Below, piece by piece: positions 1 to 35,953 of a stretch of DNA of 36,111 bases. The stretch is from the NCBI GenBank assembly GCA_000004985.1, contig GG738945.1; one strand, given 5' to 3'. Source of the stretch: Naegleria gruberi (lineage: Eukaryota). Every line of letters starts with the position of its first letter. The first letter of the stretch is position 1. Under the pieces are notes generated by a model. The model saw nothing but the letters and a program-made list of their open reading frames with translations, ran no database searches and had not been told where the DNA came from. Made by a program: the position numbers and the translations under genes.

Positions 1-252
1 TATACGACTATTATTCGAAAAAGGAATGGAAAACAGGCCAGCCACAATTGTATGCTCCATGGCATGGTGAGATGATAGCTTTTCCTAATTATCTAATTAC
101 ACGAAAAGATTGCAGAATTACTAGGTCTACATGATTGGGAAAATAGTGAGAATGATGGTTAACAAGAAGAAAAATCATCTATTAGCAAATTATTAATTTA
201 ACCTTAATAAATGCTAACAGCAATAAGTTAATATTTTATGACTACAACATAA

Positions 253-341
253 GGGCGGTTAGCTCAGCGGTAGAGCACCGGATTGCAAAGACATTTGCAG
301 CAGACATCCGATGGTCACGTGTTCGATCCACGTACCACCCT
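253..341 (+). tRNA. Intron-containing tRNA gene, most likely tRNA-Cys (anticodon GCA at 285..287); putative 17-nt intron at 289..305
   Basis: Hand-folded cloverleaf. Acceptor stem GGGCGGT (253..259) pairs with ACCACCC (334..340) with one C·A mismatch at 4:69. D-arm is GCTC-AGCGGTA-GAGC (262..276). Anticodon stem CCGGA (278..282) pairs with TCCGA (307..311) with a C·A mismatch at 27:43. Anticodon loop is TTGCAA with U33 and purine 37. The sequence AGACATTTGCAGCAGAC sits at the canonical 37/38 intron position and contains TTGCA, which can pair with the anticodon. Variable loop is TGGTC. T-arm is ACGTG-TTCGATC-CACGT (317..333). Discriminator is T341, the base expected for tRNA-Cys. A box TAGCTCAGCGG lies at 260..270 and B box GTGTTCGATCC at 320..330. 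Confidence 0.65.
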
Positions 342-344
342 TCC

Positions 345-365
345 TTTTATCAAACAAATCTTTTT
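345..365 (+). terminator. Pol III termination T-tracts downstream of the tRNA: TTTT at 345..348 and TTTTT at 361..365
   Basis: Runs of four or more T on the tRNA-coding strand begin 4 nt after the tRNA 3' end. This is the established Pol III termination signal. Confidence 0.6.
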
Positions 366-367
366 AT

Positions 368-973
368 CTAAGCAGGAGGTTGAGTATTACATGAATCCAA
401 AGCGAAATCTTCATCAACAAAGTGTCCACAAGCGTATTTCATCAAAACACTTCTCACTTTTCTAGAATTAATATCATACGACTTGAAACTCAACTTGTCC
501 TGATACTGTTCCATTAAATTCTTGAACATTCCTTTTTGTTTCATTGAAGTGAAACAATTACAAAGTGAATAACAAAATCCACCATTTGAATGAACGTAGA
601 CAACACTATCTGGTGTTTCCTCCTGACCATCACGAATAGAACACGACCACTTCTTCTCTTCCTCACTAACAATTGTATCACAAGCTGAGAATGGACTGTA
701 AAACATTTTCTTTTCACAATCCATAAGAATTGGATACTTATTGGTGGCATAAATGTATTGGAATAGCGCTTGATCTTCAATTCTTTCCTTTGGTTCACCT
801 CTTTTCACATTCAATCCAATGGAAAGTGCCTTTCGAATATCACGTTTTCTTCCAACGTAAAGTCCACTATTTAAATAAATTCTATCATTTGCTGATGCAC
901 AATTTCTCTTAACTCTATAGCCATTAATGTCATAGTAGTATTTTTCTACCATATTCTCCTCCTCAGGTGTTTT
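368..973 (-). CDS. Exon 3 (terminal) of the LH3/PLOD-like GT-domain glycosyltransferase; stop TAG at 370..368
   Basis: Continuous ORF to the stop. Motifs RIYLNSGLYVG (LH3 has RFLNSGGFIG), DQALFQYIY (LH3 has DDQLFYTRLY) and VVYVHSNGG (LH3 has IVVHGNGP) match conserved blocks of the lysyl-hydroxylase N-terminal GT domain, recalled from memory. Exon sizes of 418, 269 and 603 nt sum to 1290 nt, or 430 codons, with consistent phases. Confidence 0.7.
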   Translation of the reverse strand, partial: KTPEEENMVEKYYYDINGYRVKRNCASANDRIYLNSGLYVGRKRDIRKALSIGLNVKRGEPKERIEDQALFQYIYATNKYPILMDCEKKMFYSPFSACDTIVSEEEKKWSCSIRDGQEETPDSVVYVHSNGGFCYSLCNCFTSMKQKGMFKNLMEQYQDKLSFKSYDINSRKVRSVLMKYACGHFVDEDFALDSCNTQPPA

Positions 974-1024
974 CTAATAGAGTATGAATCGAGAAAATTA
1001 GTAAATTCTATTAGAAACACTTAC
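974..1024 (-). other. Intron 2 of the GT-like gene (51 nt, GTAAGT...TATTAG)
   Basis: Perfect GTAAGT donor. AG acceptor at 975..974. The 51-nt length is typical of nematode introns. It contains in-frame TAA (1000..998) and TAG stops. Removing it joins exon 2 (phase 0) to 973 in frame (...NMFT|KTPEEENMVEKYYYD...). Confidence 0.65.
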
Positions 1025-1293
1025 TGTAAACATATTTTGAATGAAATCATTTGGTGGCCACTTATTCTTTTCAGCAATAAACACAATAGGCCAATCTCTC
1101 TCACTATCTTTCAAATCAATATTAGCAATTTCCTTGATATAGTAAGTTTCGTATACTTTCTTGACATTTTCAATATTATTGATGAATAAAACATCTGTTG
1201 CATCACTGAAAACAATAATATCATGATCATCAATGTAGTTAGACTCTCTACCCGATAAAAATTGAAAAGTCCTCTCAATCTTCTTCCAATGAG
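1025..1293 (-). CDS. Exon 2 of the LH3/PLOD-like GT-domain glycosyltransferase; carries the DxxD motif in IIVFSDATDVLF
   Basis: Continuous ORF (HWKKIERTFQFLSGRESNYIDDHDIIVFSDATDVLFINN...FIAEKNKWPPNDFIQNMFT). It is in the same frame as exons 1 and 3. It ends at a codon boundary immediately before GTAAGT at 1024..1019. It resembles the LH3 stretch MIIMFVDSYDVIL...LLFSAE...CWPEW. Confidence 0.7.
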
Positions 1294-1347
1294 CTTTACA
1301 TTTCACATGTCAATTTTCACTAATTAAATGCCAACCATCAAACTTAC
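1294..1347 (-). other. Putative intron 1 of the GT-like gene (54 nt, GTAAGT...AAAG); it would remove the in-frame TGA at 1312..1310
   Basis: A single in-frame TGA separates two ORFs that share one reading frame. A consensus GTAAGT donor begins at 1347. The first AG after the stop is at 1295..1294. Splicing 1348|1293 keeps the frame (AKY-T-HWKK). The acceptor is weak because it lacks a polypyrimidine tract or TTTCAG. Confidence 0.4.
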
Positions 1348-1765
1348 TATATTTTGCTTCAGGAGCACCGTCAGCACCAATAACTGTTGGTGGAACATAA
1401 TTAGGTGATTTTTCATTATAATTAAACAAATAATAGGTTGATAAGAATATTTTACAAAGACCTCTCACTCGGTTGAGTTTTAAATTTTCAGAATTTGTGA
1501 AATCGACATCTAGATAAGTGACAGGGAATACTCTAGCTTCTCCTCTAACTCCTCGCTTGGATGTAAAATAAAAAATCATCACCAAACTTGTGAGGATGAA
1601 TAATAGCAAGAGAATTGTAGGTAAATTACATCTTGACTTGCCATTGACATTTGACTTGATTGGGTGTTTCTCTGAATTAACGTAAGGTGAGTTGGAAAAT
1701 GAAGCTGTTGATGTGCTGCTGGAAATGTGAGACTCCAAATCCTGTGAAATGTTTGGTCTTTGCAT
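1348..1765 (-). CDS. Exon 1 of a LH3/PLOD-like GT-domain glycosyltransferase; N-terminal cytoplasmic tail plus signal-anchor TM, roughly nt 1562..1621
   Basis: ATG at 1765..1763 sits in an aaaaaaaATG context. Residues about 49..68 (PTILLLLFILTSLVMIFYF) form a hydrophobic signal-anchor, which predicts type II topology. The ORF continues in frame to 1313. The proposed exon end lies before a GTAAGT donor at 1347..1342, phase 1. The upstream boundary is as observed. The 3' boundary depends on the proposed intron 1. Confidence 0.6.
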
Positions 1766-2202
1766 TTTTTTTGAAAGGTCACAGCTAGTTGGTTTGCTTG
1801 TGGTTTTTACCCATCAGTTGAGGAAAAAATTTATTTCGCACTCACTTTCCAGCTTACTTCCAACCCACAAAAACAAAACAAGAATTTTGGAGCTCCAAAG
1901 CCATAAAACAATCCTAAAGAGGTGGTTTTAGTATGTTAGTACTACTATGTTTTGGATTTTGCTGTTGTTGATTTTCAAGTTTAGAACCGAGCTGTGGGCA
2001 GTTTTAAATGGGATATTTGCAAGAAATTGGAATTTCTACATTTAAAATTTCCAATACTTGCAGTTCTATAGAGATAGGAAAACAACTTGTCAAAAATGTT
2101 GTTCGAGGGTGTTTGTTCATAAGTGCTAGATAGATATCGTGCAGATGGTGCATTGNGGAATCCAATAACTATGACAGAAGTCCCATATGCTCATTAGCAG
2201 AT

Positions 2203-5200
2203 NNNNNNNNNNNNNNNNNNNNNNNNNNNNNNNNNNNNNNNNNNNNNNNNNNNNNNNNNNNNNNNNNNNNNNNNNNNNNNNNNNNNNNNNNNNNNNNNNN
2301 NNNNNNNNNNNNNNNNNNNNNNNNNNNNNNNNNNNNNNNNNNNNNNNNNNNNNNNNNNNNNNNNNNNNNNNNNNNNNNNNNNNNNNNNNNNNNNNNNNNN
2401 NNNNNNNNNNNNNNNNNNNNNNNNNNNNNNNNNNNNNNNNNNNNNNNNNNNNNNNNNNNNNNNNNNNNNNNNNNNNNNNNNNNNNNNNNNNNNNNNNNNN
2501 NNNNNNNNNNNNNNNNNNNNNNNNNNNNNNNNNNNNNNNNNNNNNNNNNNNNNNNNNNNNNNNNNNNNNNNNNNNNNNNNNNNNNNNNNNNNNNNNNNNN
2601 NNNNNNNNNNNNNNNNNNNNNNNNNNNNNNNNNNNNNNNNNNNNNNNNNNNNNNNNNNNNNNNNNNNNNNNNNNNNNNNNNNNNNNNNNNNNNNNNNNNN
2701 NNNNNNNNNNNNNNNNNNNNNNNNNNNNNNNNNNNNNNNNNNNNNNNNNNNNNNNNNNNNNNNNNNNNNNNNNNNNNNNNNNNNNNNNNNNNNNNNNNNN
2801 NNNNNNNNNNNNNNNNNNNNNNNNNNNNNNNNNNNNNNNNNNNNNNNNNNNNNNNNNNNNNNNNNNNNNNNNNNNNNNNNNNNNNNNNNNNNNNNNNNNN
2901 NNNNNNNNNNNNNNNNNNNNNNNNNNNNNNNNNNNNNNNNNNNNNNNNNNNNNNNNNNNNNNNNNNNNNNNNNNNNNNNNNNNNNNNNNNNNNNNNNNNN
3001 NNNNNNNNNNNNNNNNNNNNNNNNNNNNNNNNNNNNNNNNNNNNNNNNNNNNNNNNNNNNNNNNNNNNNNNNNNNNNNNNNNNNNNNNNNNNNNNNNNNN
3101 NNNNNNNNNNNNNNNNNNNNNNNNNNNNNNNNNNNNNNNNNNNNNNNNNNNNNNNNNNNNNNNNNNNNNNNNNNNNNNNNNNNNNNNNNNNNNNNNNNNN
3201 NNNNNNNNNNNNNNNNNNNNNNNNNNNNNNNNNNNNNNNNNNNNNNNNNNNNNNNNNNNNNNNNNNNNNNNNNNNNNNNNNNNNNNNNNNNNNNNNNNNN
3301 NNNNNNNNNNNNNNNNNNNNNNNNNNNNNNNNNNNNNNNNNNNNNNNNNNNNNNNNNNNNNNNNNNNNNNNNNNNNNNNNNNNNNNNNNNNNNNNNNNNN
3401 NNNNNNNNNNNNNNNNNNNNNNNNNNNNNNNNNNNNNNNNNNNNNNNNNNNNNNNNNNNNNNNNNNNNNNNNNNNNNNNNNNNNNNNNNNNNNNNNNNNN
3501 NNNNNNNNNNNNNNNNNNNNNNNNNNNNNNNNNNNNNNNNNNNNNNNNNNNNNNNNNNNNNNNNNNNNNNNNNNNNNNNNNNNNNNNNNNNNNNNNNNNN
3601 NNNNNNNNNNNNNNNNNNNNNNNNNNNNNNNNNNNNNNNNNNNNNNNNNNNNNNNNNNNNNNNNNNNNNNNNNNNNNNNNNNNNNNNNNNNNNNNNNNNN
3701 NNNNNNNNNNNNNNNNNNNNNNNNNNNNNNNNNNNNNNNNNNNNNNNNNNNNNNNNNNNNNNNNNNNNNNNNNNNNNNNNNNNNNNNNNNNNNNNNNNNN
3801 NNNNNNNNNNNNNNNNNNNNNNNNNNNNNNNNNNNNNNNNNNNNNNNNNNNNNNNNNNNNNNNNNNNNNNNNNNNNNNNNNNNNNNNNNNNNNNNNNNNN
3901 NNNNNNNNNNNNNNNNNNNNNNNNNNNNNNNNNNNNNNNNNNNNNNNNNNNNNNNNNNNNNNNNNNNNNNNNNNNNNNNNNNNNNNNNNNNNNNNNNNNN
4001 NNNNNNNNNNNNNNNNNNNNNNNNNNNNNNNNNNNNNNNNNNNNNNNNNNNNNNNNNNNNNNNNNNNNNNNNNNNNNNNNNNNNNNNNNNNNNNNNNNNN
4101 NNNNNNNNNNNNNNNNNNNNNNNNNNNNNNNNNNNNNNNNNNNNNNNNNNNNNNNNNNNNNNNNNNNNNNNNNNNNNNNNNNNNNNNNNNNNNNNNNNNN
4201 NNNNNNNNNNNNNNNNNNNNNNNNNNNNNNNNNNNNNNNNNNNNNNNNNNNNNNNNNNNNNNNNNNNNNNNNNNNNNNNNNNNNNNNNNNNNNNNNNNNN
4301 NNNNNNNNNNNNNNNNNNNNNNNNNNNNNNNNNNNNNNNNNNNNNNNNNNNNNNNNNNNNNNNNNNNNNNNNNNNNNNNNNNNNNNNNNNNNNNNNNNNN
4401 NNNNNNNNNNNNNNNNNNNNNNNNNNNNNNNNNNNNNNNNNNNNNNNNNNNNNNNNNNNNNNNNNNNNNNNNNNNNNNNNNNNNNNNNNNNNNNNNNNNN
4501 NNNNNNNNNNNNNNNNNNNNNNNNNNNNNNNNNNNNNNNNNNNNNNNNNNNNNNNNNNNNNNNNNNNNNNNNNNNNNNNNNNNNNNNNNNNNNNNNNNNN
4601 NNNNNNNNNNNNNNNNNNNNNNNNNNNNNNNNNNNNNNNNNNNNNNNNNNNNNNNNNNNNNNNNNNNNNNNNNNNNNNNNNNNNNNNNNNNNNNNNNNNN
4701 NNNNNNNNNNNNNNNNNNNNNNNNNNNNNNNNNNNNNNNNNNNNNNNNNNNNNNNNNNNNNNNNNNNNNNNNNNNNNNNNNNNNNNNNNNNNNNNNNNNN
4801 NNNNNNNNNNNNNNNNNNNNNNNNNNNNNNNNNNNNNNNNNNNNNNNNNNNNNNNNNNNNNNNNNNNNNNNNNNNNNNNNNNNNNNNNNNNNNNNNNNNN
4901 NNNNNNNNNNNNNNNNNNNNNNNNNNNNNNNNNNNNNNNNNNNNNNNNNNNNNNNNNNNNNNNNNNNNNNNNNNNNNNNNNNNNNNNNNNNNNNNNNNNN
5001 NNNNNNNNNNNNNNNNNNNNNNNNNNNNNNNNNNNNNNNNNNNNNNNNNNNNNNNNNNNNNNNNNNNNNNNNNNNNNNNNNNNNNNNNNNNNNNNNNNNN
5101 NNNNNNNNNNNNNNNNNNNNNNNNNNNNNNNNNNNNNNNNNNNNNNNNNNNNNNNNNNNNNNNNNNNNNNNNNNNNNNNNNNNNNNNNNNNNNNNNNNNN

Positions 5201-8200
5201 NNNNNNNNNNNNNNNNNNNNNNNNNNNNNNNNNNNNNNNNNNNNNNNNNNNNNNNNNNNNNNNNNNNNNNNNNNNNNNNNNNNNNNNNNNNNNNNNNNNN
5301 NNNNNNNNNNNNNNNNNNNNNNNNNNNNNNNNNNNNNNNNNNNNNNNNNNNNNNNNNNNNNNNNNNNNNNNNNNNNNNNNNNNNNNNNNNNNNNNNNNNN
5401 NNNNNNNNNNNNNNNNNNNNNNNNNNNNNNNNNNNNNNNNNNNNNNNNNNNNNNNNNNNNNNNNNNNNNNNNNNNNNNNNNNNNNNNNNNNNNNNNNNNN
5501 NNNNNNNNNNNNNNNNNNNNNNNNNNNNNNNNNNNNNNNNNNNNNNNNNNNNNNNNNNNNNNNNNNNNNNNNNNNNNNNNNNNNNNNNNNNNNNNNNNNN
5601 NNNNNNNNNNNNNNNNNNNNNNNNNNNNNNNNNNNNNNNNNNNNNNNNNNNNNNNNNNNNNNNNNNNNNNNNNNNNNNNNNNNNNNNNNNNNNNNNNNNN
5701 NNNNNNNNNNNNNNNNNNNNNNNNNNNNNNNNNNNNNNNNNNNNNNNNNNNNNNNNNNNNNNNNNNNNNNNNNNNNNNNNNNNNNNNNNNNNNNNNNNNN
5801 NNNNNNNNNNNNNNNNNNNNNNNNNNNNNNNNNNNNNNNNNNNNNNNNNNNNNNNNNNNNNNNNNNNNNNNNNNNNNNNNNNNNNNNNNNNNNNNNNNNN
5901 NNNNNNNNNNNNNNNNNNNNNNNNNNNNNNNNNNNNNNNNNNNNNNNNNNNNNNNNNNNNNNNNNNNNNNNNNNNNNNNNNNNNNNNNNNNNNNNNNNNN
6001 NNNNNNNNNNNNNNNNNNNNNNNNNNNNNNNNNNNNNNNNNNNNNNNNNNNNNNNNNNNNNNNNNNNNNNNNNNNNNNNNNNNNNNNNNNNNNNNNNNNN
6101 NNNNNNNNNNNNNNNNNNNNNNNNNNNNNNNNNNNNNNNNNNNNNNNNNNNNNNNNNNNNNNNNNNNNNNNNNNNNNNNNNNNNNNNNNNNNNNNNNNNN
6201 NNNNNNNNNNNNNNNNNNNNNNNNNNNNNNNNNNNNNNNNNNNNNNNNNNNNNNNNNNNNNNNNNNNNNNNNNNNNNNNNNNNNNNNNNNNNNNNNNNNN
6301 NNNNNNNNNNNNNNNNNNNNNNNNNNNNNNNNNNNNNNNNNNNNNNNNNNNNNNNNNNNNNNNNNNNNNNNNNNNNNNNNNNNNNNNNNNNNNNNNNNNN
6401 NNNNNNNNNNNNNNNNNNNNNNNNNNNNNNNNNNNNNNNNNNNNNNNNNNNNNNNNNNNNNNNNNNNNNNNNNNNNNNNNNNNNNNNNNNNNNNNNNNNN
6501 NNNNNNNNNNNNNNNNNNNNNNNNNNNNNNNNNNNNNNNNNNNNNNNNNNNNNNNNNNNNNNNNNNNNNNNNNNNNNNNNNNNNNNNNNNNNNNNNNNNN
6601 NNNNNNNNNNNNNNNNNNNNNNNNNNNNNNNNNNNNNNNNNNNNNNNNNNNNNNNNNNNNNNNNNNNNNNNNNNNNNNNNNNNNNNNNNNNNNNNNNNNN
6701 NNNNNNNNNNNNNNNNNNNNNNNNNNNNNNNNNNNNNNNNNNNNNNNNNNNNNNNNNNNNNNNNNNNNNNNNNNNNNNNNNNNNNNNNNNNNNNNNNNNN
6801 NNNNNNNNNNNNNNNNNNNNNNNNNNNNNNNNNNNNNNNNNNNNNNNNNNNNNNNNNNNNNNNNNNNNNNNNNNNNNNNNNNNNNNNNNNNNNNNNNNNN
6901 NNNNNNNNNNNNNNNNNNNNNNNNNNNNNNNNNNNNNNNNNNNNNNNNNNNNNNNNNNNNNNNNNNNNNNNNNNNNNNNNNNNNNNNNNNNNNNNNNNNN
7001 NNNNNNNNNNNNNNNNNNNNNNNNNNNNNNNNNNNNNNNNNNNNNNNNNNNNNNNNNNNNNNNNNNNNNNNNNNNNNNNNNNNNNNNNNNNNNNNNNNNN
7101 NNNNNNNNNNNNNNNNNNNNNNNNNNNNNNNNNNNNNNNNNNNNNNNNNNNNNNNNNNNNNNNNNNNNNNNNNNNNNNNNNNNNNNNNNNNNNNNNNNNN
7201 NNNNNNNNNNNNNNNNNNNNNNNNNNNNNNNNNNNNNNNNNNNNNNNNNNNNNNNNNNNNNNNNNNNNNNNNNNNNNNNNNNNNNNNNNNNNNNNNNNNN
7301 NNNNNNNNNNNNNNNNNNNNNNNNNNNNNNNNNNNNNNNNNNNNNNNNNNNNNNNNNNNNNNNNNNNNNNNNNNNNNNNNNNNNNNNNNNNNNNNNNNNN
7401 NNNNNNNNNNNNNNNNNNNNNNNNNNNNNNNNNNNNNNNNNNNNNNNNNNNNNNNNNNNNNNNNNNNNNNNNNNNNNNNNNNNNNNNNNNNNNNNNNNNN
7501 NNNNNNNNNNNNNNNNNNNNNNNNNNNNNNNNNNNNNNNNNNNNNNNNNNNNNNNNNNNNNNNNNNNNNNNNNNNNNNNNNNNNNNNNNNNNNNNNNNNN
7601 NNNNNNNNNNNNNNNNNNNNNNNNNNNNNNNNNNNNNNNNNNNNNNNNNNNNNNNNNNNNNNNNNNNNNNNNNNNNNNNNNNNNNNNNNNNNNNNNNNNN
7701 NNNNNNNNNNNNNNNNNNNNNNNNNNNNNNNNNNNNNNNNNNNNNNNNNNNNNNNNNNNNNNNNNNNNNNNNNNNNNNNNNNNNNNNNNNNNNNNNNNNN
7801 NNNNNNNNNNNNNNNNNNNNNNNNNNNNNNNNNNNNNNNNNNNNNNNNNNNNNNNNNNNNNNNNNNNNNNNNNNNNNNNNNNNNNNNNNNNNNNNNNNNN
7901 NNNNNNNNNNNNNNNNNNNNNNNNNNNNNNNNNNNNNNNNNNNNNNNNNNNNNNNNNNNNNNNNNNNNNNNNNNNNNNNNNNNNNNNNNNNNNNNNNNNN
8001 NNNNNNNNNNNNNNNNNNNNNNNNNNNNNNNNNNNNNNNNNNNNNNNNNNNNNNNNNNNNNNNNNNNNNNNNNNNNNNNNNNNNNNNNNNNNNNNNNNNN
8101 NNNNNNNNNNNNNNNNNNNNNNNNNNNNNNNNNNNNNNNNNNNNNNNNNNNNNNNNNNNNNNNNNNNNNNNNNNNNNNNNNNNNNNNNNNNNNNNNNNNN

Positions 8201-11200
8201 NNNNNNNNNNNNNNNNNNNNNNNNNNNNNNNNNNNNNNNNNNNNNNNNNNNNNNNNNNNNNNNNNNNNNNNNNNNNNNNNNNNNNNNNNNNNNNNNNNNN
8301 NNNNNNNNNNNNNNNNNNNNNNNNNNNNNNNNNNNNNNNNNNNNNNNNNNNNNNNNNNNNNNNNNNNNNNNNNNNNNNNNNNNNNNNNNNNNNNNNNNNN
8401 NNNNNNNNNNNNNNNNNNNNNNNNNNNNNNNNNNNNNNNNNNNNNNNNNNNNNNNNNNNNNNNNNNNNNNNNNNNNNNNNNNNNNNNNNNNNNNNNNNNN
8501 NNNNNNNNNNNNNNNNNNNNNNNNNNNNNNNNNNNNNNNNNNNNNNNNNNNNNNNNNNNNNNNNNNNNNNNNNNNNNNNNNNNNNNNNNNNNNNNNNNNN
8601 NNNNNNNNNNNNNNNNNNNNNNNNNNNNNNNNNNNNNNNNNNNNNNNNNNNNNNNNNNNNNNNNNNNNNNNNNNNNNNNNNNNNNNNNNNNNNNNNNNNN
8701 NNNNNNNNNNNNNNNNNNNNNNNNNNNNNNNNNNNNNNNNNNNNNNNNNNNNNNNNNNNNNNNNNNNNNNNNNNNNNNNNNNNNNNNNNNNNNNNNNNNN
8801 NNNNNNNNNNNNNNNNNNNNNNNNNNNNNNNNNNNNNNNNNNNNNNNNNNNNNNNNNNNNNNNNNNNNNNNNNNNNNNNNNNNNNNNNNNNNNNNNNNNN
8901 NNNNNNNNNNNNNNNNNNNNNNNNNNNNNNNNNNNNNNNNNNNNNNNNNNNNNNNNNNNNNNNNNNNNNNNNNNNNNNNNNNNNNNNNNNNNNNNNNNNN
9001 NNNNNNNNNNNNNNNNNNNNNNNNNNNNNNNNNNNNNNNNNNNNNNNNNNNNNNNNNNNNNNNNNNNNNNNNNNNNNNNNNNNNNNNNNNNNNNNNNNNN
9101 NNNNNNNNNNNNNNNNNNNNNNNNNNNNNNNNNNNNNNNNNNNNNNNNNNNNNNNNNNNNNNNNNNNNNNNNNNNNNNNNNNNNNNNNNNNNNNNNNNNN
9201 NNNNNNNNNNNNNNNNNNNNNNNNNNNNNNNNNNNNNNNNNNNNNNNNNNNNNNNNNNNNNNNNNNNNNNNNNNNNNNNNNNNNNNNNNNNNNNNNNNNN
9301 NNNNNNNNNNNNNNNNNNNNNNNNNNNNNNNNNNNNNNNNNNNNNNNNNNNNNNNNNNNNNNNNNNNNNNNNNNNNNNNNNNNNNNNNNNNNNNNNNNNN
9401 NNNNNNNNNNNNNNNNNNNNNNNNNNNNNNNNNNNNNNNNNNNNNNNNNNNNNNNNNNNNNNNNNNNNNNNNNNNNNNNNNNNNNNNNNNNNNNNNNNNN
9501 NNNNNNNNNNNNNNNNNNNNNNNNNNNNNNNNNNNNNNNNNNNNNNNNNNNNNNNNNNNNNNNNNNNNNNNNNNNNNNNNNNNNNNNNNNNNNNNNNNNN
9601 NNNNNNNNNNNNNNNNNNNNNNNNNNNNNNNNNNNNNNNNNNNNNNNNNNNNNNNNNNNNNNNNNNNNNNNNNNNNNNNNNNNNNNNNNNNNNNNNNNNN
9701 NNNNNNNNNNNNNNNNNNNNNNNNNNNNNNNNNNNNNNNNNNNNNNNNNNNNNNNNNNNNNNNNNNNNNNNNNNNNNNNNNNNNNNNNNNNNNNNNNNNN
9801 NNNNNNNNNNNNNNNNNNNNNNNNNNNNNNNNNNNNNNNNNNNNNNNNNNNNNNNNNNNNNNNNNNNNNNNNNNNNNNNNNNNNNNNNNNNNNNNNNNNN
9901 NNNNNNNNNNNNNNNNNNNNNNNNNNNNNNNNNNNNNNNNNNNNNNNNNNNNNNNNNNNNNNNNNNNNNNNNNNNNNNNNNNNNNNNNNNNNNNNNNNNN
10001 NNNNNNNNNNNNNNNNNNNNNNNNNNNNNNNNNNNNNNNNNNNNNNNNNNNNNNNNNNNNNNNNNNNNNNNNNNNNNNNNNNNNNNNNNNNNNNNNNNNN
10101 NNNNNNNNNNNNNNNNNNNNNNNNNNNNNNNNNNNNNNNNNNNNNNNNNNNNNNNNNNNNNNNNNNNNNNNNNNNNNNNNNNNNNNNNNNNNNNNNNNNN
10201 NNNNNNNNNNNNNNNNNNNNNNNNNNNNNNNNNNNNNNNNNNNNNNNNNNNNNNNNNNNNNNNNNNNNNNNNNNNNNNNNNNNNNNNNNNNNNNNNNNNN
10301 NNNNNNNNNNNNNNNNNNNNNNNNNNNNNNNNNNNNNNNNNNNNNNNNNNNNNNNNNNNNNNNNNNNNNNNNNNNNNNNNNNNNNNNNNNNNNNNNNNNN
10401 NNNNNNNNNNNNNNNNNNNNNNNNNNNNNNNNNNNNNNNNNNNNNNNNNNNNNNNNNNNNNNNNNNNNNNNNNNNNNNNNNNNNNNNNNNNNNNNNNNNN
10501 NNNNNNNNNNNNNNNNNNNNNNNNNNNNNNNNNNNNNNNNNNNNNNNNNNNNNNNNNNNNNNNNNNNNNNNNNNNNNNNNNNNNNNNNNNNNNNNNNNNN
10601 NNNNNNNNNNNNNNNNNNNNNNNNNNNNNNNNNNNNNNNNNNNNNNNNNNNNNNNNNNNNNNNNNNNNNNNNNNNNNNNNNNNNNNNNNNNNNNNNNNNN
10701 NNNNNNNNNNNNNNNNNNNNNNNNNNNNNNNNNNNNNNNNNNNNNNNNNNNNNNNNNNNNNNNNNNNNNNNNNNNNNNNNNNNNNNNNNNNNNNNNNNNN
10801 NNNNNNNNNNNNNNNNNNNNNNNNNNNNNNNNNNNNNNNNNNNNNNNNNNNNNNNNNNNNNNNNNNNNNNNNNNNNNNNNNNNNNNNNNNNNNNNNNNNN
10901 NNNNNNNNNNNNNNNNNNNNNNNNNNNNNNNNNNNNNNNNNNNNNNNNNNNNNNNNNNNNNNNNNNNNNNNNNNNNNNNNNNNNNNNNNNNNNNNNNNNN
11001 NNNNNNNNNNNNNNNNNNNNNNNNNNNNNNNNNNNNNNNNNNNNNNNNNNNNNNNNNNNNNNNNNNNNNNNNNNNNNNNNNNNNNNNNNNNNNNNNNNNN
11101 NNNNNNNNNNNNNNNNNNNNNNNNNNNNNNNNNNNNNNNNNNNNNNNNNNNNNNNNNNNNNNNNNNNNNNNNNNNNNNNNNNNNNNNNNNNNNNNNNNNN

Positions 11201-14200
11201 NNNNNNNNNNNNNNNNNNNNNNNNNNNNNNNNNNNNNNNNNNNNNNNNNNNNNNNNNNNNNNNNNNNNNNNNNNNNNNNNNNNNNNNNNNNNNNNNNNNN
11301 NNNNNNNNNNNNNNNNNNNNNNNNNNNNNNNNNNNNNNNNNNNNNNNNNNNNNNNNNNNNNNNNNNNNNNNNNNNNNNNNNNNNNNNNNNNNNNNNNNNN
11401 NNNNNNNNNNNNNNNNNNNNNNNNNNNNNNNNNNNNNNNNNNNNNNNNNNNNNNNNNNNNNNNNNNNNNNNNNNNNNNNNNNNNNNNNNNNNNNNNNNNN
11501 NNNNNNNNNNNNNNNNNNNNNNNNNNNNNNNNNNNNNNNNNNNNNNNNNNNNNNNNNNNNNNNNNNNNNNNNNNNNNNNNNNNNNNNNNNNNNNNNNNNN
11601 NNNNNNNNNNNNNNNNNNNNNNNNNNNNNNNNNNNNNNNNNNNNNNNNNNNNNNNNNNNNNNNNNNNNNNNNNNNNNNNNNNNNNNNNNNNNNNNNNNNN
11701 NNNNNNNNNNNNNNNNNNNNNNNNNNNNNNNNNNNNNNNNNNNNNNNNNNNNNNNNNNNNNNNNNNNNNNNNNNNNNNNNNNNNNNNNNNNNNNNNNNNN
11801 NNNNNNNNNNNNNNNNNNNNNNNNNNNNNNNNNNNNNNNNNNNNNNNNNNNNNNNNNNNNNNNNNNNNNNNNNNNNNNNNNNNNNNNNNNNNNNNNNNNN
11901 NNNNNNNNNNNNNNNNNNNNNNNNNNNNNNNNNNNNNNNNNNNNNNNNNNNNNNNNNNNNNNNNNNNNNNNNNNNNNNNNNNNNNNNNNNNNNNNNNNNN
12001 NNNNNNNNNNNNNNNNNNNNNNNNNNNNNNNNNNNNNNNNNNNNNNNNNNNNNNNNNNNNNNNNNNNNNNNNNNNNNNNNNNNNNNNNNNNNNNNNNNNN
12101 NNNNNNNNNNNNNNNNNNNNNNNNNNNNNNNNNNNNNNNNNNNNNNNNNNNNNNNNNNNNNNNNNNNNNNNNNNNNNNNNNNNNNNNNNNNNNNNNNNNN
12201 NNNNNNNNNNNNNNNNNNNNNNNNNNNNNNNNNNNNNNNNNNNNNNNNNNNNNNNNNNNNNNNNNNNNNNNNNNNNNNNNNNNNNNNNNNNNNNNNNNNN
12301 NNNNNNNNNNNNNNNNNNNNNNNNNNNNNNNNNNNNNNNNNNNNNNNNNNNNNNNNNNNNNNNNNNNNNNNNNNNNNNNNNNNNNNNNNNNNNNNNNNNN
12401 NNNNNNNNNNNNNNNNNNNNNNNNNNNNNNNNNNNNNNNNNNNNNNNNNNNNNNNNNNNNNNNNNNNNNNNNNNNNNNNNNNNNNNNNNNNNNNNNNNNN
12501 NNNNNNNNNNNNNNNNNNNNNNNNNNNNNNNNNNNNNNNNNNNNNNNNNNNNNNNNNNNNNNNNNNNNNNNNNNNNNNNNNNNNNNNNNNNNNNNNNNNN
12601 NNNNNNNNNNNNNNNNNNNNNNNNNNNNNNNNNNNNNNNNNNNNNNNNNNNNNNNNNNNNNNNNNNNNNNNNNNNNNNNNNNNNNNNNNNNNNNNNNNNN
12701 NNNNNNNNNNNNNNNNNNNNNNNNNNNNNNNNNNNNNNNNNNNNNNNNNNNNNNNNNNNNNNNNNNNNNNNNNNNNNNNNNNNNNNNNNNNNNNNNNNNN
12801 NNNNNNNNNNNNNNNNNNNNNNNNNNNNNNNNNNNNNNNNNNNNNNNNNNNNNNNNNNNNNNNNNNNNNNNNNNNNNNNNNNNNNNNNNNNNNNNNNNNN
12901 NNNNNNNNNNNNNNNNNNNNNNNNNNNNNNNNNNNNNNNNNNNNNNNNNNNNNNNNNNNNNNNNNNNNNNNNNNNNNNNNNNNNNNNNNNNNNNNNNNNN
13001 NNNNNNNNNNNNNNNNNNNNNNNNNNNNNNNNNNNNNNNNNNNNNNNNNNNNNNNNNNNNNNNNNNNNNNNNNNNNNNNNNNNNNNNNNNNNNNNNNNNN
13101 NNNNNNNNNNNNNNNNNNNNNNNNNNNNNNNNNNNNNNNNNNNNNNNNNNNNNNNNNNNNNNNNNNNNNNNNNNNNNNNNNNNNNNNNNNNNNNNNNNNN
13201 NNNNNNNNNNNNNNNNNNNNNNNNNNNNNNNNNNNNNNNNNNNNNNNNNNNNNNNNNNNNNNNNNNNNNNNNNNNNNNNNNNNNNNNNNNNNNNNNNNNN
13301 NNNNNNNNNNNNNNNNNNNNNNNNNNNNNNNNNNNNNNNNNNNNNNNNNNNNNNNNNNNNNNNNNNNNNNNNNNNNNNNNNNNNNNNNNNNNNNNNNNNN
13401 NNNNNNNNNNNNNNNNNNNNNNNNNNNNNNNNNNNNNNNNNNNNNNNNNNNNNNNNNNNNNNNNNNNNNNNNNNNNNNNNNNNNNNNNNNNNNNNNNNNN
13501 NNNNNNNNNNNNNNNNNNNNNNNNNNNNNNNNNNNNNNNNNNNNNNNNNNNNNNNNNNNNNNNNNNNNNNNNNNNNNNNNNNNNNNNNNNNNNNNNNNNN
13601 NNNNNNNNNNNNNNNNNNNNNNNNNNNNNNNNNNNNNNNNNNNNNNNNNNNNNNNNNNNNNNNNNNNNNNNNNNNNNNNNNNNNNNNNNNNNNNNNNNNN
13701 NNNNNNNNNNNNNNNNNNNNNNNNNNNNNNNNNNNNNNNNNNNNNNNNNNNNNNNNNNNNNNNNNNNNNNNNNNNNNNNNNNNNNNNNNNNNNNNNNNNN
13801 NNNNNNNNNNNNNNNNNNNNNNNNNNNNNNNNNNNNNNNNNNNNNNNNNNNNNNNNNNNNNNNNNNNNNNNNNNNNNNNNNNNNNNNNNNNNNNNNNNNN
13901 NNNNNNNNNNNNNNNNNNNNNNNNNNNNNNNNNNNNNNNNNNNNNNNNNNNNNNNNNNNNNNNNNNNNNNNNNNNNNNNNNNNNNNNNNNNNNNNNNNNN
14001 NNNNNNNNNNNNNNNNNNNNNNNNNNNNNNNNNNNNNNNNNNNNNNNNNNNNNNNNNNNNNNNNNNNNNNNNNNNNNNNNNNNNNNNNNNNNNNNNNNNN
14101 NNNNNNNNNNNNNNNNNNNNNNNNNNNNNNNNNNNNNNNNNNNNNNNNNNNNNNNNNNNNNNNNNNNNNNNNNNNNNNNNNNNNNNNNNNNNNNNNNNNN

Positions 14201-17200
14201 NNNNNNNNNNNNNNNNNNNNNNNNNNNNNNNNNNNNNNNNNNNNNNNNNNNNNNNNNNNNNNNNNNNNNNNNNNNNNNNNNNNNNNNNNNNNNNNNNNNN
14301 NNNNNNNNNNNNNNNNNNNNNNNNNNNNNNNNNNNNNNNNNNNNNNNNNNNNNNNNNNNNNNNNNNNNNNNNNNNNNNNNNNNNNNNNNNNNNNNNNNNN
14401 NNNNNNNNNNNNNNNNNNNNNNNNNNNNNNNNNNNNNNNNNNNNNNNNNNNNNNNNNNNNNNNNNNNNNNNNNNNNNNNNNNNNNNNNNNNNNNNNNNNN
14501 NNNNNNNNNNNNNNNNNNNNNNNNNNNNNNNNNNNNNNNNNNNNNNNNNNNNNNNNNNNNNNNNNNNNNNNNNNNNNNNNNNNNNNNNNNNNNNNNNNNN
14601 NNNNNNNNNNNNNNNNNNNNNNNNNNNNNNNNNNNNNNNNNNNNNNNNNNNNNNNNNNNNNNNNNNNNNNNNNNNNNNNNNNNNNNNNNNNNNNNNNNNN
14701 NNNNNNNNNNNNNNNNNNNNNNNNNNNNNNNNNNNNNNNNNNNNNNNNNNNNNNNNNNNNNNNNNNNNNNNNNNNNNNNNNNNNNNNNNNNNNNNNNNNN
14801 NNNNNNNNNNNNNNNNNNNNNNNNNNNNNNNNNNNNNNNNNNNNNNNNNNNNNNNNNNNNNNNNNNNNNNNNNNNNNNNNNNNNNNNNNNNNNNNNNNNN
14901 NNNNNNNNNNNNNNNNNNNNNNNNNNNNNNNNNNNNNNNNNNNNNNNNNNNNNNNNNNNNNNNNNNNNNNNNNNNNNNNNNNNNNNNNNNNNNNNNNNNN
15001 NNNNNNNNNNNNNNNNNNNNNNNNNNNNNNNNNNNNNNNNNNNNNNNNNNNNNNNNNNNNNNNNNNNNNNNNNNNNNNNNNNNNNNNNNNNNNNNNNNNN
15101 NNNNNNNNNNNNNNNNNNNNNNNNNNNNNNNNNNNNNNNNNNNNNNNNNNNNNNNNNNNNNNNNNNNNNNNNNNNNNNNNNNNNNNNNNNNNNNNNNNNN
15201 NNNNNNNNNNNNNNNNNNNNNNNNNNNNNNNNNNNNNNNNNNNNNNNNNNNNNNNNNNNNNNNNNNNNNNNNNNNNNNNNNNNNNNNNNNNNNNNNNNNN
15301 NNNNNNNNNNNNNNNNNNNNNNNNNNNNNNNNNNNNNNNNNNNNNNNNNNNNNNNNNNNNNNNNNNNNNNNNNNNNNNNNNNNNNNNNNNNNNNNNNNNN
15401 NNNNNNNNNNNNNNNNNNNNNNNNNNNNNNNNNNNNNNNNNNNNNNNNNNNNNNNNNNNNNNNNNNNNNNNNNNNNNNNNNNNNNNNNNNNNNNNNNNNN
15501 NNNNNNNNNNNNNNNNNNNNNNNNNNNNNNNNNNNNNNNNNNNNNNNNNNNNNNNNNNNNNNNNNNNNNNNNNNNNNNNNNNNNNNNNNNNNNNNNNNNN
15601 NNNNNNNNNNNNNNNNNNNNNNNNNNNNNNNNNNNNNNNNNNNNNNNNNNNNNNNNNNNNNNNNNNNNNNNNNNNNNNNNNNNNNNNNNNNNNNNNNNNN
15701 NNNNNNNNNNNNNNNNNNNNNNNNNNNNNNNNNNNNNNNNNNNNNNNNNNNNNNNNNNNNNNNNNNNNNNNNNNNNNNNNNNNNNNNNNNNNNNNNNNNN
15801 NNNNNNNNNNNNNNNNNNNNNNNNNNNNNNNNNNNNNNNNNNNNNNNNNNNNNNNNNNNNNNNNNNNNNNNNNNNNNNNNNNNNNNNNNNNNNNNNNNNN
15901 NNNNNNNNNNNNNNNNNNNNNNNNNNNNNNNNNNNNNNNNNNNNNNNNNNNNNNNNNNNNNNNNNNNNNNNNNNNNNNNNNNNNNNNNNNNNNNNNNNNN
16001 NNNNNNNNNNNNNNNNNNNNNNNNNNNNNNNNNNNNNNNNNNNNNNNNNNNNNNNNNNNNNNNNNNNNNNNNNNNNNNNNNNNNNNNNNNNNNNNNNNNN
16101 NNNNNNNNNNNNNNNNNNNNNNNNNNNNNNNNNNNNNNNNNNNNNNNNNNNNNNNNNNNNNNNNNNNNNNNNNNNNNNNNNNNNNNNNNNNNNNNNNNNN
16201 NNNNNNNNNNNNNNNNNNNNNNNNNNNNNNNNNNNNNNNNNNNNNNNNNNNNNNNNNNNNNNNNNNNNNNNNNNNNNNNNNNNNNNNNNNNNNNNNNNNN
16301 NNNNNNNNNNNNNNNNNNNNNNNNNNNNNNNNNNNNNNNNNNNNNNNNNNNNNNNNNNNNNNNNNNNNNNNNNNNNNNNNNNNNNNNNNNNNNNNNNNNN
16401 NNNNNNNNNNNNNNNNNNNNNNNNNNNNNNNNNNNNNNNNNNNNNNNNNNNNNNNNNNNNNNNNNNNNNNNNNNNNNNNNNNNNNNNNNNNNNNNNNNNN
16501 NNNNNNNNNNNNNNNNNNNNNNNNNNNNNNNNNNNNNNNNNNNNNNNNNNNNNNNNNNNNNNNNNNNNNNNNNNNNNNNNNNNNNNNNNNNNNNNNNNNN
16601 NNNNNNNNNNNNNNNNNNNNNNNNNNNNNNNNNNNNNNNNNNNNNNNNNNNNNNNNNNNNNNNNNNNNNNNNNNNNNNNNNNNNNNNNNNNNNNNNNNNN
16701 NNNNNNNNNNNNNNNNNNNNNNNNNNNNNNNNNNNNNNNNNNNNNNNNNNNNNNNNNNNNNNNNNNNNNNNNNNNNNNNNNNNNNNNNNNNNNNNNNNNN
16801 NNNNNNNNNNNNNNNNNNNNNNNNNNNNNNNNNNNNNNNNNNNNNNNNNNNNNNNNNNNNNNNNNNNNNNNNNNNNNNNNNNNNNNNNNNNNNNNNNNNN
16901 NNNNNNNNNNNNNNNNNNNNNNNNNNNNNNNNNNNNNNNNNNNNNNNNNNNNNNNNNNNNNNNNNNNNNNNNNNNNNNNNNNNNNNNNNNNNNNNNNNNN
17001 NNNNNNNNNNNNNNNNNNNNNNNNNNNNNNNNNNNNNNNNNNNNNNNNNNNNNNNNNNNNNNNNNNNNNNNNNNNNNNNNNNNNNNNNNNNNNNNNNNNN
17101 NNNNNNNNNNNNNNNNNNNNNNNNNNNNNNNNNNNNNNNNNNNNNNNNNNNNNNNNNNNNNNNNNNNNNNNNNNNNNNNNNNNNNNNNNNNNNNNNNNNN

Positions 17201-20200
17201 NNNNNNNNNNNNNNNNNNNNNNNNNNNNNNNNNNNNNNNNNNNNNNNNNNNNNNNNNNNNNNNNNNNNNNNNNNNNNNNNNNNNNNNNNNNNNNNNNNNN
17301 NNNNNNNNNNNNNNNNNNNNNNNNNNNNNNNNNNNNNNNNNNNNNNNNNNNNNNNNNNNNNNNNNNNNNNNNNNNNNNNNNNNNNNNNNNNNNNNNNNNN
17401 NNNNNNNNNNNNNNNNNNNNNNNNNNNNNNNNNNNNNNNNNNNNNNNNNNNNNNNNNNNNNNNNNNNNNNNNNNNNNNNNNNNNNNNNNNNNNNNNNNNN
17501 NNNNNNNNNNNNNNNNNNNNNNNNNNNNNNNNNNNNNNNNNNNNNNNNNNNNNNNNNNNNNNNNNNNNNNNNNNNNNNNNNNNNNNNNNNNNNNNNNNNN
17601 NNNNNNNNNNNNNNNNNNNNNNNNNNNNNNNNNNNNNNNNNNNNNNNNNNNNNNNNNNNNNNNNNNNNNNNNNNNNNNNNNNNNNNNNNNNNNNNNNNNN
17701 NNNNNNNNNNNNNNNNNNNNNNNNNNNNNNNNNNNNNNNNNNNNNNNNNNNNNNNNNNNNNNNNNNNNNNNNNNNNNNNNNNNNNNNNNNNNNNNNNNNN
17801 NNNNNNNNNNNNNNNNNNNNNNNNNNNNNNNNNNNNNNNNNNNNNNNNNNNNNNNNNNNNNNNNNNNNNNNNNNNNNNNNNNNNNNNNNNNNNNNNNNNN
17901 NNNNNNNNNNNNNNNNNNNNNNNNNNNNNNNNNNNNNNNNNNNNNNNNNNNNNNNNNNNNNNNNNNNNNNNNNNNNNNNNNNNNNNNNNNNNNNNNNNNN
18001 NNNNNNNNNNNNNNNNNNNNNNNNNNNNNNNNNNNNNNNNNNNNNNNNNNNNNNNNNNNNNNNNNNNNNNNNNNNNNNNNNNNNNNNNNNNNNNNNNNNN
18101 NNNNNNNNNNNNNNNNNNNNNNNNNNNNNNNNNNNNNNNNNNNNNNNNNNNNNNNNNNNNNNNNNNNNNNNNNNNNNNNNNNNNNNNNNNNNNNNNNNNN
18201 NNNNNNNNNNNNNNNNNNNNNNNNNNNNNNNNNNNNNNNNNNNNNNNNNNNNNNNNNNNNNNNNNNNNNNNNNNNNNNNNNNNNNNNNNNNNNNNNNNNN
18301 NNNNNNNNNNNNNNNNNNNNNNNNNNNNNNNNNNNNNNNNNNNNNNNNNNNNNNNNNNNNNNNNNNNNNNNNNNNNNNNNNNNNNNNNNNNNNNNNNNNN
18401 NNNNNNNNNNNNNNNNNNNNNNNNNNNNNNNNNNNNNNNNNNNNNNNNNNNNNNNNNNNNNNNNNNNNNNNNNNNNNNNNNNNNNNNNNNNNNNNNNNNN
18501 NNNNNNNNNNNNNNNNNNNNNNNNNNNNNNNNNNNNNNNNNNNNNNNNNNNNNNNNNNNNNNNNNNNNNNNNNNNNNNNNNNNNNNNNNNNNNNNNNNNN
18601 NNNNNNNNNNNNNNNNNNNNNNNNNNNNNNNNNNNNNNNNNNNNNNNNNNNNNNNNNNNNNNNNNNNNNNNNNNNNNNNNNNNNNNNNNNNNNNNNNNNN
18701 NNNNNNNNNNNNNNNNNNNNNNNNNNNNNNNNNNNNNNNNNNNNNNNNNNNNNNNNNNNNNNNNNNNNNNNNNNNNNNNNNNNNNNNNNNNNNNNNNNNN
18801 NNNNNNNNNNNNNNNNNNNNNNNNNNNNNNNNNNNNNNNNNNNNNNNNNNNNNNNNNNNNNNNNNNNNNNNNNNNNNNNNNNNNNNNNNNNNNNNNNNNN
18901 NNNNNNNNNNNNNNNNNNNNNNNNNNNNNNNNNNNNNNNNNNNNNNNNNNNNNNNNNNNNNNNNNNNNNNNNNNNNNNNNNNNNNNNNNNNNNNNNNNNN
19001 NNNNNNNNNNNNNNNNNNNNNNNNNNNNNNNNNNNNNNNNNNNNNNNNNNNNNNNNNNNNNNNNNNNNNNNNNNNNNNNNNNNNNNNNNNNNNNNNNNNN
19101 NNNNNNNNNNNNNNNNNNNNNNNNNNNNNNNNNNNNNNNNNNNNNNNNNNNNNNNNNNNNNNNNNNNNNNNNNNNNNNNNNNNNNNNNNNNNNNNNNNNN
19201 NNNNNNNNNNNNNNNNNNNNNNNNNNNNNNNNNNNNNNNNNNNNNNNNNNNNNNNNNNNNNNNNNNNNNNNNNNNNNNNNNNNNNNNNNNNNNNNNNNNN
19301 NNNNNNNNNNNNNNNNNNNNNNNNNNNNNNNNNNNNNNNNNNNNNNNNNNNNNNNNNNNNNNNNNNNNNNNNNNNNNNNNNNNNNNNNNNNNNNNNNNNN
19401 NNNNNNNNNNNNNNNNNNNNNNNNNNNNNNNNNNNNNNNNNNNNNNNNNNNNNNNNNNNNNNNNNNNNNNNNNNNNNNNNNNNNNNNNNNNNNNNNNNNN
19501 NNNNNNNNNNNNNNNNNNNNNNNNNNNNNNNNNNNNNNNNNNNNNNNNNNNNNNNNNNNNNNNNNNNNNNNNNNNNNNNNNNNNNNNNNNNNNNNNNNNN
19601 NNNNNNNNNNNNNNNNNNNNNNNNNNNNNNNNNNNNNNNNNNNNNNNNNNNNNNNNNNNNNNNNNNNNNNNNNNNNNNNNNNNNNNNNNNNNNNNNNNNN
19701 NNNNNNNNNNNNNNNNNNNNNNNNNNNNNNNNNNNNNNNNNNNNNNNNNNNNNNNNNNNNNNNNNNNNNNNNNNNNNNNNNNNNNNNNNNNNNNNNNNNN
19801 NNNNNNNNNNNNNNNNNNNNNNNNNNNNNNNNNNNNNNNNNNNNNNNNNNNNNNNNNNNNNNNNNNNNNNNNNNNNNNNNNNNNNNNNNNNNNNNNNNNN
19901 NNNNNNNNNNNNNNNNNNNNNNNNNNNNNNNNNNNNNNNNNNNNNNNNNNNNNNNNNNNNNNNNNNNNNNNNNNNNNNNNNNNNNNNNNNNNNNNNNNNN
20001 NNNNNNNNNNNNNNNNNNNNNNNNNNNNNNNNNNNNNNNNNNNNNNNNNNNNNNNNNNNNNNNNNNNNNNNNNNNNNNNNNNNNNNNNNNNNNNNNNNNN
20101 NNNNNNNNNNNNNNNNNNNNNNNNNNNNNNNNNNNNNNNNNNNNNNNNNNNNNNNNNNNNNNNNNNNNNNNNNNNNNNNNNNNNNNNNNNNNNNNNNNNN

Positions 20201-35707: not shown

Positions 35708-35953
35708 AATTCCAATCATAAAAACCACTCCAACAACCAACATTCCCCACAGAACAATATCCATCAATTGATGATTATCAGTATATGTATAAAAACAAGC
35801 TTGTTGCGAGGTGGAAATATTATAAGATACAACCAGACAACTCATTCCGAAAATTAAATAGAAAATAATCCACCAATAACCATCATAATTTGAATCTCGC
35901 TGTTGATGATGATTTTGATGGTGGAAGGATGAGAAACGATTCGAGTTGAGCAT
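35708..35953 (-). CDS. 5' portion of a gene encoding a predicted multi-pass membrane protein; His/Gln-rich N-terminus, then two hydrophobic segments. It is truncated by the N block and its family is not identified.
   Basis: ORF MLNSNRFSSFHHQNHHQQRDSNYDGYWWIIFYLIFGMSCLVVSYNISTSQQACFYTYTDNHQLMDIVLWGMLVVGVVFMIGI is open into the gap. ATG at 35953..35951 sits in an aaagaaaaATG context. The ORF track starts this ORF at a TTG at 35992..35990, which is less likely to be the real start. Hydrophobic segments are WWIIFYLIFGMSCLVVSY and LMDIVLWGMLVVGVVFMIGI. Confidence 0.5.

Follow-up and report, generated by a model that had tools for sequence, protein, structure and literature searches.

The window analyzed here is a 36,111-nt stretch of DNA that makes up an entire scaffold of the Naegleria gruberi genome assembly (GenBank assembly GCA_000004985.1, contig GG738945.1). 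Two pieces, of 2.2 kb and 0.4 kb, flank a gap: real bases occupy only positions 1..2202 and 35708..36111, and positions 2203..35707 are a single run of 33,505 Ns that accounts for 93% of the stretch. The left-hand real part carries, on the minus strand (1765..368), a three-exon gene that is predicted to encode a 430-residue, membrane-anchored glycosyltransferase (GT). Its catalytic domain appears to be a divergent relative of the GT domain of lysyl hydroxylase LH3 (PLOD3). A tRNA gene lies close to its 3' end. The features of the locus are collected in Table 1.

Table 1. Features of the N. gruberi scaffold, with residue numbers of the predicted 430-aa protein and the equivalent residues of LH3 and of mimivirus protein R699
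Feature	Position	Strand	Description
Exon 1	1765..1348	-	aa 1-139 and first base of codon 140; Ser/Thr-rich tail, signal-anchor, stem and first GT-A beta-alpha-beta unit (VFPVTYLD ... LCKIFLSTYY ... PPTVIGAD)
Transmembrane segment (predicted signal-anchor)	1562..1624	-	aa 48-68, LPTILLLLFILTSLVMIFYFT; 19-residue Kyte-Doolittle mean 2.46
Intron 1	1347..1294	-	54 nt, GTAAGT...AG, phase 1; only acceptor leaving the frame open
Exon 2	1293..1025	-	aa 140-229; holds the HWKK, DxxD and E..WPP motifs
HWKK (H141-W142-K143-K144)	1280..1291	-	K144 = LH3 K89 = R699 K62, donor-sugar contact (PMC10342707, PMC12279948)
DxxD (D170-A-T-D173)	1193..1204	-	= LH3 D112-S-Y-D115, R699 D83/D86; Mn2+ ligands
E214-K-N-K-W218-P219	1055..1072	-	= LH3 E141-S-F-C-W145-P146, essential carboxylate and gating Trp; R699 E114/W118
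Intron 2	1024..974	-	51 nt, GTAAGT...TACTAAT...AG, phase 0
Exon 3	973..368	-	aa 230-430 and TAG stop (370..368); second half of GT-A domain and Cys-rich C-terminal extension of ~65 aa
L263-N264-S265-G266	863..874	-	N264, S265 = LH3 N165, S166, adjoining the donor sugar
E295-D296-Q297	770..778	-	= LH3 D190-D191-Q192, end of poly-Asp helix; R699 D162/D163 for E295/D296
H357-S-N359	584..592	-	= LH3 H253-G-N255, R699 H216/N218; third Mn2+ ligand and Asn adjoining the UDP-sugar bond
tRNA-Cys(GCA)	252-344	+	17-nt intron after position 37; Rfam 50.4 bits; ARAGORN with introns allowed

To define the gene, we enumerated all GT..AG introns starting at the two GTAAGT donors (1347 and 1024). A single clean reading was obtained, with three exons and 430 codons for amino acids, and the ATG at 1765 is the first start downstream of an in-frame stop. 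Exon 1 is colinear with the N. fowleri orthologue FDP41_001017 (P0001; 454 aa, 47% identical, E 9e-105), with the N. gruberi paralogue NAEGRDRAFT_73724 (P0063; 481 aa, 70% identical) and with P0019. Both splice junctions are colinear with P0001 (...PYTHWKK... and ...QNMFAKTEKEE...), with P0063 and with P0005 of Willaertia magna, and the intron 1 junction, between EAKY and THWKK, agrees with both the orthologue and the paralogue. The N. fowleri intron between QNMFA and KTEKEE has a codon boundary and phase identical to those of intron 2 in the window; the first N. fowleri intron has the phase of intron 1 and lies 3 aligned residues off. The N-terminus with its transmembrane segment is supported by P0063, P0001, P0019 and the protein deposited for this scaffold (P0062). 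The gene of three exons and about 430 residues proposed by an earlier, sequence-only reading of this DNA was thus borne out by the intron enumeration and by the colinear junctions. The best explanation for the locus is a real, expressed-type N. gruberi gene.

Two other gene structures were tried and rejected. The first had an additional intron in exon 1 (GTGAGA at 1468 ... CAACAG), but the segment VRGLCKIFLSTYYLFNYNEKSPNYVPPT is conserved as protein in the orthologues. The second was the alternative N-terminus of the partial protein P0003, in which the end of exon 1 is joined to an unrelated N-terminus; the first 178 aa of P0003 are absent from the window.

The protein deposited for the scaffold is NAEGRDRAFT_76241 (XP_002668835.1, UniProt D2W4B1; P0062), which has 384 aa. 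It differs from the 430-aa protein only through intron 1, which spans 1156..1347 and measures 192 nt instead of 54 nt. It thereby loses 46 residues (aa 140-185, THWKK...FSDATDV...NVKKV) that are conserved in every homologue and that include both HWKK and DxxD. Because the public model splices out the DxxD motif, we judge from the sequences that the 430-aa model is the better one and that the public intron is misplaced, cutting the predicted metal-binding motif. If the 384-aa model were nevertheless correct, the mature protein would have neither HWKK nor DxxD and would be unable to bind metal. That model is the deposited annotation, and an alternative acceptor AG is present at 1156. However, the 138 nt that it removes are an open, in-frame continuation of the gene; their translation is conserved in P0063 (N. 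gruberi), P0001 (N. fowleri), P0005 (Willaertia) and the exon fragment P0013; they hold the most conserved motif of the family; and the other intron of the gene is just 51 nt long. We therefore consider the public model very unlikely to be right.

Parts of the gene occur elsewhere. A near-identical copy of exon 3 (...QPPPA versus ...QPPA) lies on a 782-kb N. gruberi scaffold, where exon 3 alone is annotated as a 195-aa open reading frame (ORF), NAEGRDRAFT_65411 (P0007). The small scaffold studied here probably represents, redundantly or as a second allele, a region that the main assembly already contains. Positions 244..1477 also have a counterpart with 99.3% identity in L002, a metagenome contig of 1.2 kb. 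The Naegleria proteins of this family have been deposited as "predicted" or "hypothetical" and carry no domain assignment.

When the 430-aa protein was scanned against Pfam, the sole match was GT_PLOD (PF25342; 25.5 bits, E 9.2e-6). The N. fowleri orthologue gave no GT_PLOD match at E <= 0.01; at E <= 10, all three Naegleria sequences matched this family. Direct searches of the Protein Data Bank (PDB) with little sequence information were uninformative: phmmer with the single protein returned only a weak and irrelevant match (2w3y, E 0.11), and a 3-sequence profile missed LH3. With a 13-sequence, family-only profile, the best PDB matches were R699 of mimivirus (E 1e-3) and the GT domain of LH3 (E 0.024), with every motif in register.

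Broader comparisons gave the same relationship. A profile built from Naegleria sequences only, including the exon translations of the window, was searched against 1.84e9 representative proteins and found 53 matches at E <= 1e-3. Among the matches outside the heterolobosean family, 36 of the 40 scanned were GT_PLOD by Pfam, with a best E of 3.8e-77; Glyco_transf_25 was found in four of the 40, and a few of the distant matches also carry GT25 or a C-terminal 2-oxoglutarate (2OG)-oxygenase-like region. Using hhalign, we aligned the family with a set made of LH3, R699 and 13 stand-alone GT_PLOD proteins, and obtained a probability of 99.8% and an E of 9.1e-29 over 191 columns. A hidden Markov model of that same set, with no Naegleria sequence in it, scored the window protein at 108 bits over aa 140-396. 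The 13 stand-alone sequences had themselves been retrieved by the Naegleria profile; taken as a whole, the set matches the curated Pfam family independently of that profile, as the 36 of 40 above indicate. Sequence identity to the LH3 GT domain is only about 15-18%. The similarity, as judged by these alignments, is far beyond chance.

The fold was modeled for the N. fowleri orthologue P0001 from a 42-row alignment. The AlphaFold model has a mean predicted local distance difference test (pLDDT) of 83 and a predicted TM-score (pTM) of 0.79. In a Foldseek search of the PDB with this model, the first 15 places were all taken by LH3 or R699 (E 2.5e-10), and the TM-score was 0.71 when normalized to the isolated LH3 GT domain (6wfv). 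The next PDB matches were a xyloglucan xylosyltransferase and then ABO/GT6 enzymes. Against viral models, the top named matches were "PLOD1-3-like GT domain-containing protein" entries of giant viruses. The predicted fold is therefore of the GT-A type and closest to the LH3 GT domain. Profile, profile-profile and fold comparisons thus all point to the LH3/PLOD-type GT-A domain that the sequence-only reading had proposed. One might suspect a generic GT-A likeness, with true membership in another retaining GT-A family such as GT8, GT34, GT6 or GT24. Families of these types do occur among the lower-ranked fold matches, and one distant sequence match touches Glyco_transf_8 (E 0.01). With LH3 and R699 filling the leading fold matches and GT_PLOD the only Pfam match of the protein itself, we give this explanation scarcely any weight.

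We next compared the putative active site with that of LH3, whose residues were numbered by counting along HMMER alignments, and equivalences were taken from the hhalign map. The motifs quoted in the sequence-only reading (IIVFSDATDVLF, KNKWPP, YLNSGLYVG, EDQALFQYIY and YVHSNGG) are all present, and each aligns in register with the LH3 motif named for it. What that reading stated about LH3 also agrees with the literature: D112, D115 and H253 are the Mn2+ ligands (PMC6082870), and the tryptophan is needed, as the W145A mutant retains 8-9% of activity (PMC10342707). Both E141A and W145A are nearly inactive (PMC10342707), and mutants of D190 and D191 are inactive (PMC6082870, PMC10342707). Activity is reduced in Q192A, and Q192 is close to the uridine diphosphate (UDP)-sugar (residue roles: PMC6082870, PMC10342707, PMC12279948). 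Finally, K89, S166 and D191 of LH3 hold the donor glucose (PMC10342707).

The pocket residues E141, W145, N165, D190/D191, Q192, N255 and K89 are all matched in the window protein (Table 1), the sole change being a conservative one, from D190 to Glu295. The listed catalytic residues are invariant in the orthologue group. In the family as a whole, H357 (in YVHSNGG) is invariant, DxxD is kept in all but one of the 8 full-length members and also in P0013, a fragment of exon 2, and H141 is found in all 8 full-length members and W142 in 7 of them (Gly in P0009). H141 and W142 sit where the glycoloop of LH3 ends.

A single membrane-spanning segment precedes the catalytic domain. The 19-residue Kyte-Doolittle mean reaches 2.46 in aa 48-68 and is at most 1.1 in the rest of the protein. 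A hydrophobic N-terminal segment is also found in P0001, P0002, P0009, P0010 and P0063; in the AlphaFold model of P0001 it forms a helix (residues 21-45, block pLDDT 87-95), and the positive charges of P0001 are clearly on the N-terminal side of the segment. All full-length members of the family share ten lumenal Cys residues, the one exception being found in the fragment P0012, and the N-termini of several distant stand-alone relatives are hydrophobic and resemble signal peptides. Given the ten cysteines, the charge bias of P0001 and the N-termini of the relatives, the catalytic domain most likely faces the lumen. Of the type II signal-anchor proposed in the sequence-only reading, the single segment ahead of the catalytic domain is thus confirmed, and the type II orientation is one that we infer.

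Several observations weigh against the assignment of the protein to an anchored, active LH3-type enzyme. As a single sequence its GT_PLOD score of 25.5 bits lies just under the 27-bit gathering cut-off, so the Pfam check envisaged by the sequence-only reading returned the expected family and no other, at a sub-threshold score. For the fold, the evidence is drawn from the model of an orthologue that is 47% identical. The charges flanking the transmembrane segment of the window protein are near equal (+4 versus +3), and because of this the orientation of the window protein rests on its orthologues and on the conserved Cys residues. In the active site, the uridine-stacking Tyr114 of LH3 (R699 Y85) corresponds to Thr172, and to Leu or Met in the paralogues. 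The loop that bears Trp75 in LH3 (glycoloop G72-G87) is about 5 residues shorter, and Trp75 falls on the non-conserved residues at ~aa 134-136 in the hhalign map. The acceptor-pocket residue F143 of LH3 is Asn216, and D190 is replaced by Glu.

Because the Trp75/Tyr114 uridine "sandwich" (W48/Y85 in R699) is not conserved, nucleotide binding may differ from that in LH3. A conserved Y139-x-H141-W142 (W142 being Gly in P0009) is found at the C-terminal end of the glycoloop region, and from its position in the alignment it might substitute for Trp75.

It could be speculated that the protein is catalytically dead and that it retains the fold as a pseudoenzyme, scaffold or lectin-like partner. The loss of the uridine-stacking residues is consistent with this. 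So is the state of the group-B paralogues P0008 (N. fowleri FDP41_012674) and P0009 (N. gruberi NAEGRDRAFT_51914), which are degenerate at W218 (F/H), N359 (I/A), W142 (G) or D170 (F) and indicate that the family tolerates the loss of catalytic residues; unless sequence or gene-model errors are involved, these two proteins may be inactive or changed in specificity. However, the window protein and its orthologue group keep D170, D173, H357, E214, W218, N264, D296, Q297 and K144, that is, all the metal ligands and all the mutation-sensitive LH3 residues compared. Moreover, the Tyr114 position is variable (T, F, A, M or Y) among the distant sequences of the GT_PLOD set too. Loss of activity in the window protein is for these reasons unlikely, and we favor an active enzyme.

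Close relatives were found only in Heterolobosea, namely N. gruberi, N. fowleri, N. lovaniensis and Willaertia magna. Among them there are two or more paralogue groups, distinguished by the motifs DATDV/IEDQ and DG[LM]DV/NDDQ. The neighbors of the gene in N. fowleri (a DUF3591 protein, a fumarase and a leucine-rich repeat protein) did not hint at its function. The window protein was found to have neither an accessory domain nor a 2OG/Fe(II) hydroxylase domain: the ORF ends 73 aa past H357 at the TAG (368-370), and no further Pfam domain was matched. The orthologues end at the same point, and the tRNA-Cys gene lies 23 nt beyond the stop codon. The absence of a lysyl hydroxylase domain, which the sequence-only reading had noted, is in agreement with all of these.

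Compared with the GT domain of LH3/PLOD3 (PDB 6FXK-6FXY, 6WFV; PF25342), the Naegleria protein has Thr in place of Tyr114 and a shortened Trp75 glycoloop, replaced by Y-x-H-W-K-K. It also has two insertions of roughly 14 and 26 aa, the first before the E..WP strand and the second between WP and LNSG. The accessory and 2OG/Fe(II) hydroxylase domains of LH3 are missing, and a Cys-rich tail of ~65 aa stands in place of the accessory domain. Finally, the Naegleria protein would be anchored by its N-terminal transmembrane segment, whereas LH3 itself is soluble and has a signal peptide.

A second related protein is R699 of Acanthamoeba polyphaga mimivirus, a collagen galactosylhydroxylysyl glucosyltransferase (PDB 9DYT, 9DZS, 9E92) that, like the Naegleria protein, has no hydroxylase domain. 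R699 differs in that it has an accessory Rossmann domain, the W48/Y85 uridine sandwich and no membrane anchor, and it functions as a homodimer (PMC12279948). The stand-alone "PLOD1-3-like GT domain-containing" proteins of giant viruses (Borely moumouvirus A0A6G6AAM5; Yasminevirus A0A5K0U857) and environmental sequences (P0020, P0022, P0023 and P0030-P0032) resemble the Naegleria protein in having a single GT_PLOD domain in ~300-450 aa and the same set of motifs. As in the Naegleria family, the N-terminus of the six environmental sequences is hydrophobic, as a signal peptide or an anchor would be, and several of the stand-alone proteins end in a C-terminal extension with a conserved Cys, again as in Naegleria. 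They differ in being readily recognized by the Pfam model; the Naegleria family has diverged much further, and its best E against them is 1e-14. None of them is characterized, and so they provide no functional information. Because R699 has no hydroxylase domain and stand-alone GT_PLOD proteins occur in viruses and environmental sequences, an anchored, stand-alone LH3-type GT is not unprecedented. From the sequence comparisons, the Naegleria protein is a divergent member of the known LH3/PLOD-GT family and no new kind of system.

Some of the distant matches are multi-domain. P0044 (940 aa) looks, by sequence, like GT25, then GT_PLOD, then a C-terminal 2OG-oxygenase-like region, and would combine all three collagen-lysine modification activities in one chain. 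P0053 (925 aa) looks like GT25 with two copies of GT_PLOD.

Taken together, it is likely, in our view, that the gene encodes a 430-aa single-pass type II (N-in, C-out) protein with a lumenal GT-A domain of the LH3/PLOD family, acting as a Mn2+-dependent UDP-hexose transferase. The predicted layout is a short Ser/Thr-rich cytoplasmic tail, the signal-anchor, the lumenal GT-A (GT_PLOD) domain and a small C-terminal extension. By analogy with LH3 and R699, the aligned residues D170, D173 and H357 would hold Mn2+, and the metal would bind the diphosphate of the UDP-sugar. K144, S265 and D296 would hold the donor hexose in the way that K89, S166 and D191 hold glucose in LH3. E214 would serve as the essential carboxylate, and W218 may gate the sugar/acceptor pocket. 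Because the metal ligands and the donor-glucose residues of LH3 are conserved, Mn2+-dependent hexose transfer from a UDP-sugar is the best supported activity. The function is most likely that of a lumenal, retaining transferase of this kind, and the donor most likely UDP-glucose or another UDP-hexose, UDP-glucose being our default guess.

The acceptor need not be galactosyl-hydroxylysine. R699 glucosylates free glucose as well as galactosyl-hydroxylysine (PMC12279948), and the acceptor-side residues and the lid differ in the Naegleria protein; because of this, the acceptor cannot be inferred from family membership. One possibility, along the lines suggested by the sequence-only reading, is that the protein is a collagen-type galactosyl-hydroxylysine glucosyltransferase, as LH3 and R699 are, and acts on collagen-like Naegleria proteins that bear hydroxylysine. 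The only two characterized enzymes with this activity are its nearest matches in sequence and fold, it keeps the donor-glucose residues of LH3, and R699 is an example of such an enzyme that lacks a hydroxylase domain. On the other hand, the Trp75 glycoloop and Tyr114, which have been called distinctive for LH/PLOD GT domains, are not conserved, Asn takes the place of F143 in the acceptor pocket, an accessory domain is missing, and the activity of R699 on free glucose means that family membership leaves the acceptor unfixed. Our literature search returned nothing that ties Naegleria to lysyl hydroxylase, hydroxylysine or collagen-like proteins, nothing on a Naegleria glycome in this connection, and no mention of the locus tags of these genes. 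A collagen-type activity is thus improbable.

A more speculative possibility, to which we likewise attach a low probability, is that these proteins form a Heterolobosea-specific, expanded and membrane-anchored set of LH3-like GTs with a rebuilt nucleotide lid, in which Trp75 and Tyr114 are absent and Y-x-H-W-K-K is invariant. Such enzymes might use another donor, or their acceptors might be secretory proteins other than collagen, modified on a hydroxylated amino acid or on an unusual glycan. If true, this would be the first LH3-type protein glycosylation pathway in a free-living protist, beyond animals and giant viruses. The more general reading, a lumenal UDP-hexose transferase, is the one that we prefer.

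Other features lie elsewhere in the real parts of the scaffold. The tRNA-Cys gene is on the strand opposite to the GT gene, and a default ARAGORN run detected no tRNA in the stretch. On the minus strand at 35708-35992, an ORF (MAPNLIEKNSQRKMLNSNRFSSFHHQNHHQQRDSNYDGYWWIIFYLIFGMSCLVVSYNIS...) starts and continues into the N gap; it has two or more hydrophobic stretches and is probably the N-terminus of a multi-pass membrane protein. On the plus strand, positions 1-190 resemble by eye the 3' end of a neighboring gene leaving the left edge (...YDYYSKKEWKTGQPQLYAPWHG...), with a possible GTGAGA intron.

The finding leaves the general picture unchanged. It corrects the public model NAEGRDRAFT_76241, in which a misplaced intron would delete the metal-binding motif and hide the domain. 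Biochemical characterization of LH3-type GT domains has been limited to animal lysyl hydroxylases and mimivirus R699. The Naegleria family appears to tolerate the loss of the Tyr114/Trp75 uridine sandwich, and it may therefore be informative on what LH3-type enzymes truly need. Its placement in the LH3/PLOD family offers, for a small family of Naegleria genes that includes those of the pathogen N. fowleri, a function that can be tested: the Mn2+-dependent transfer of hexose from a UDP-sugar within the secretory pathway.

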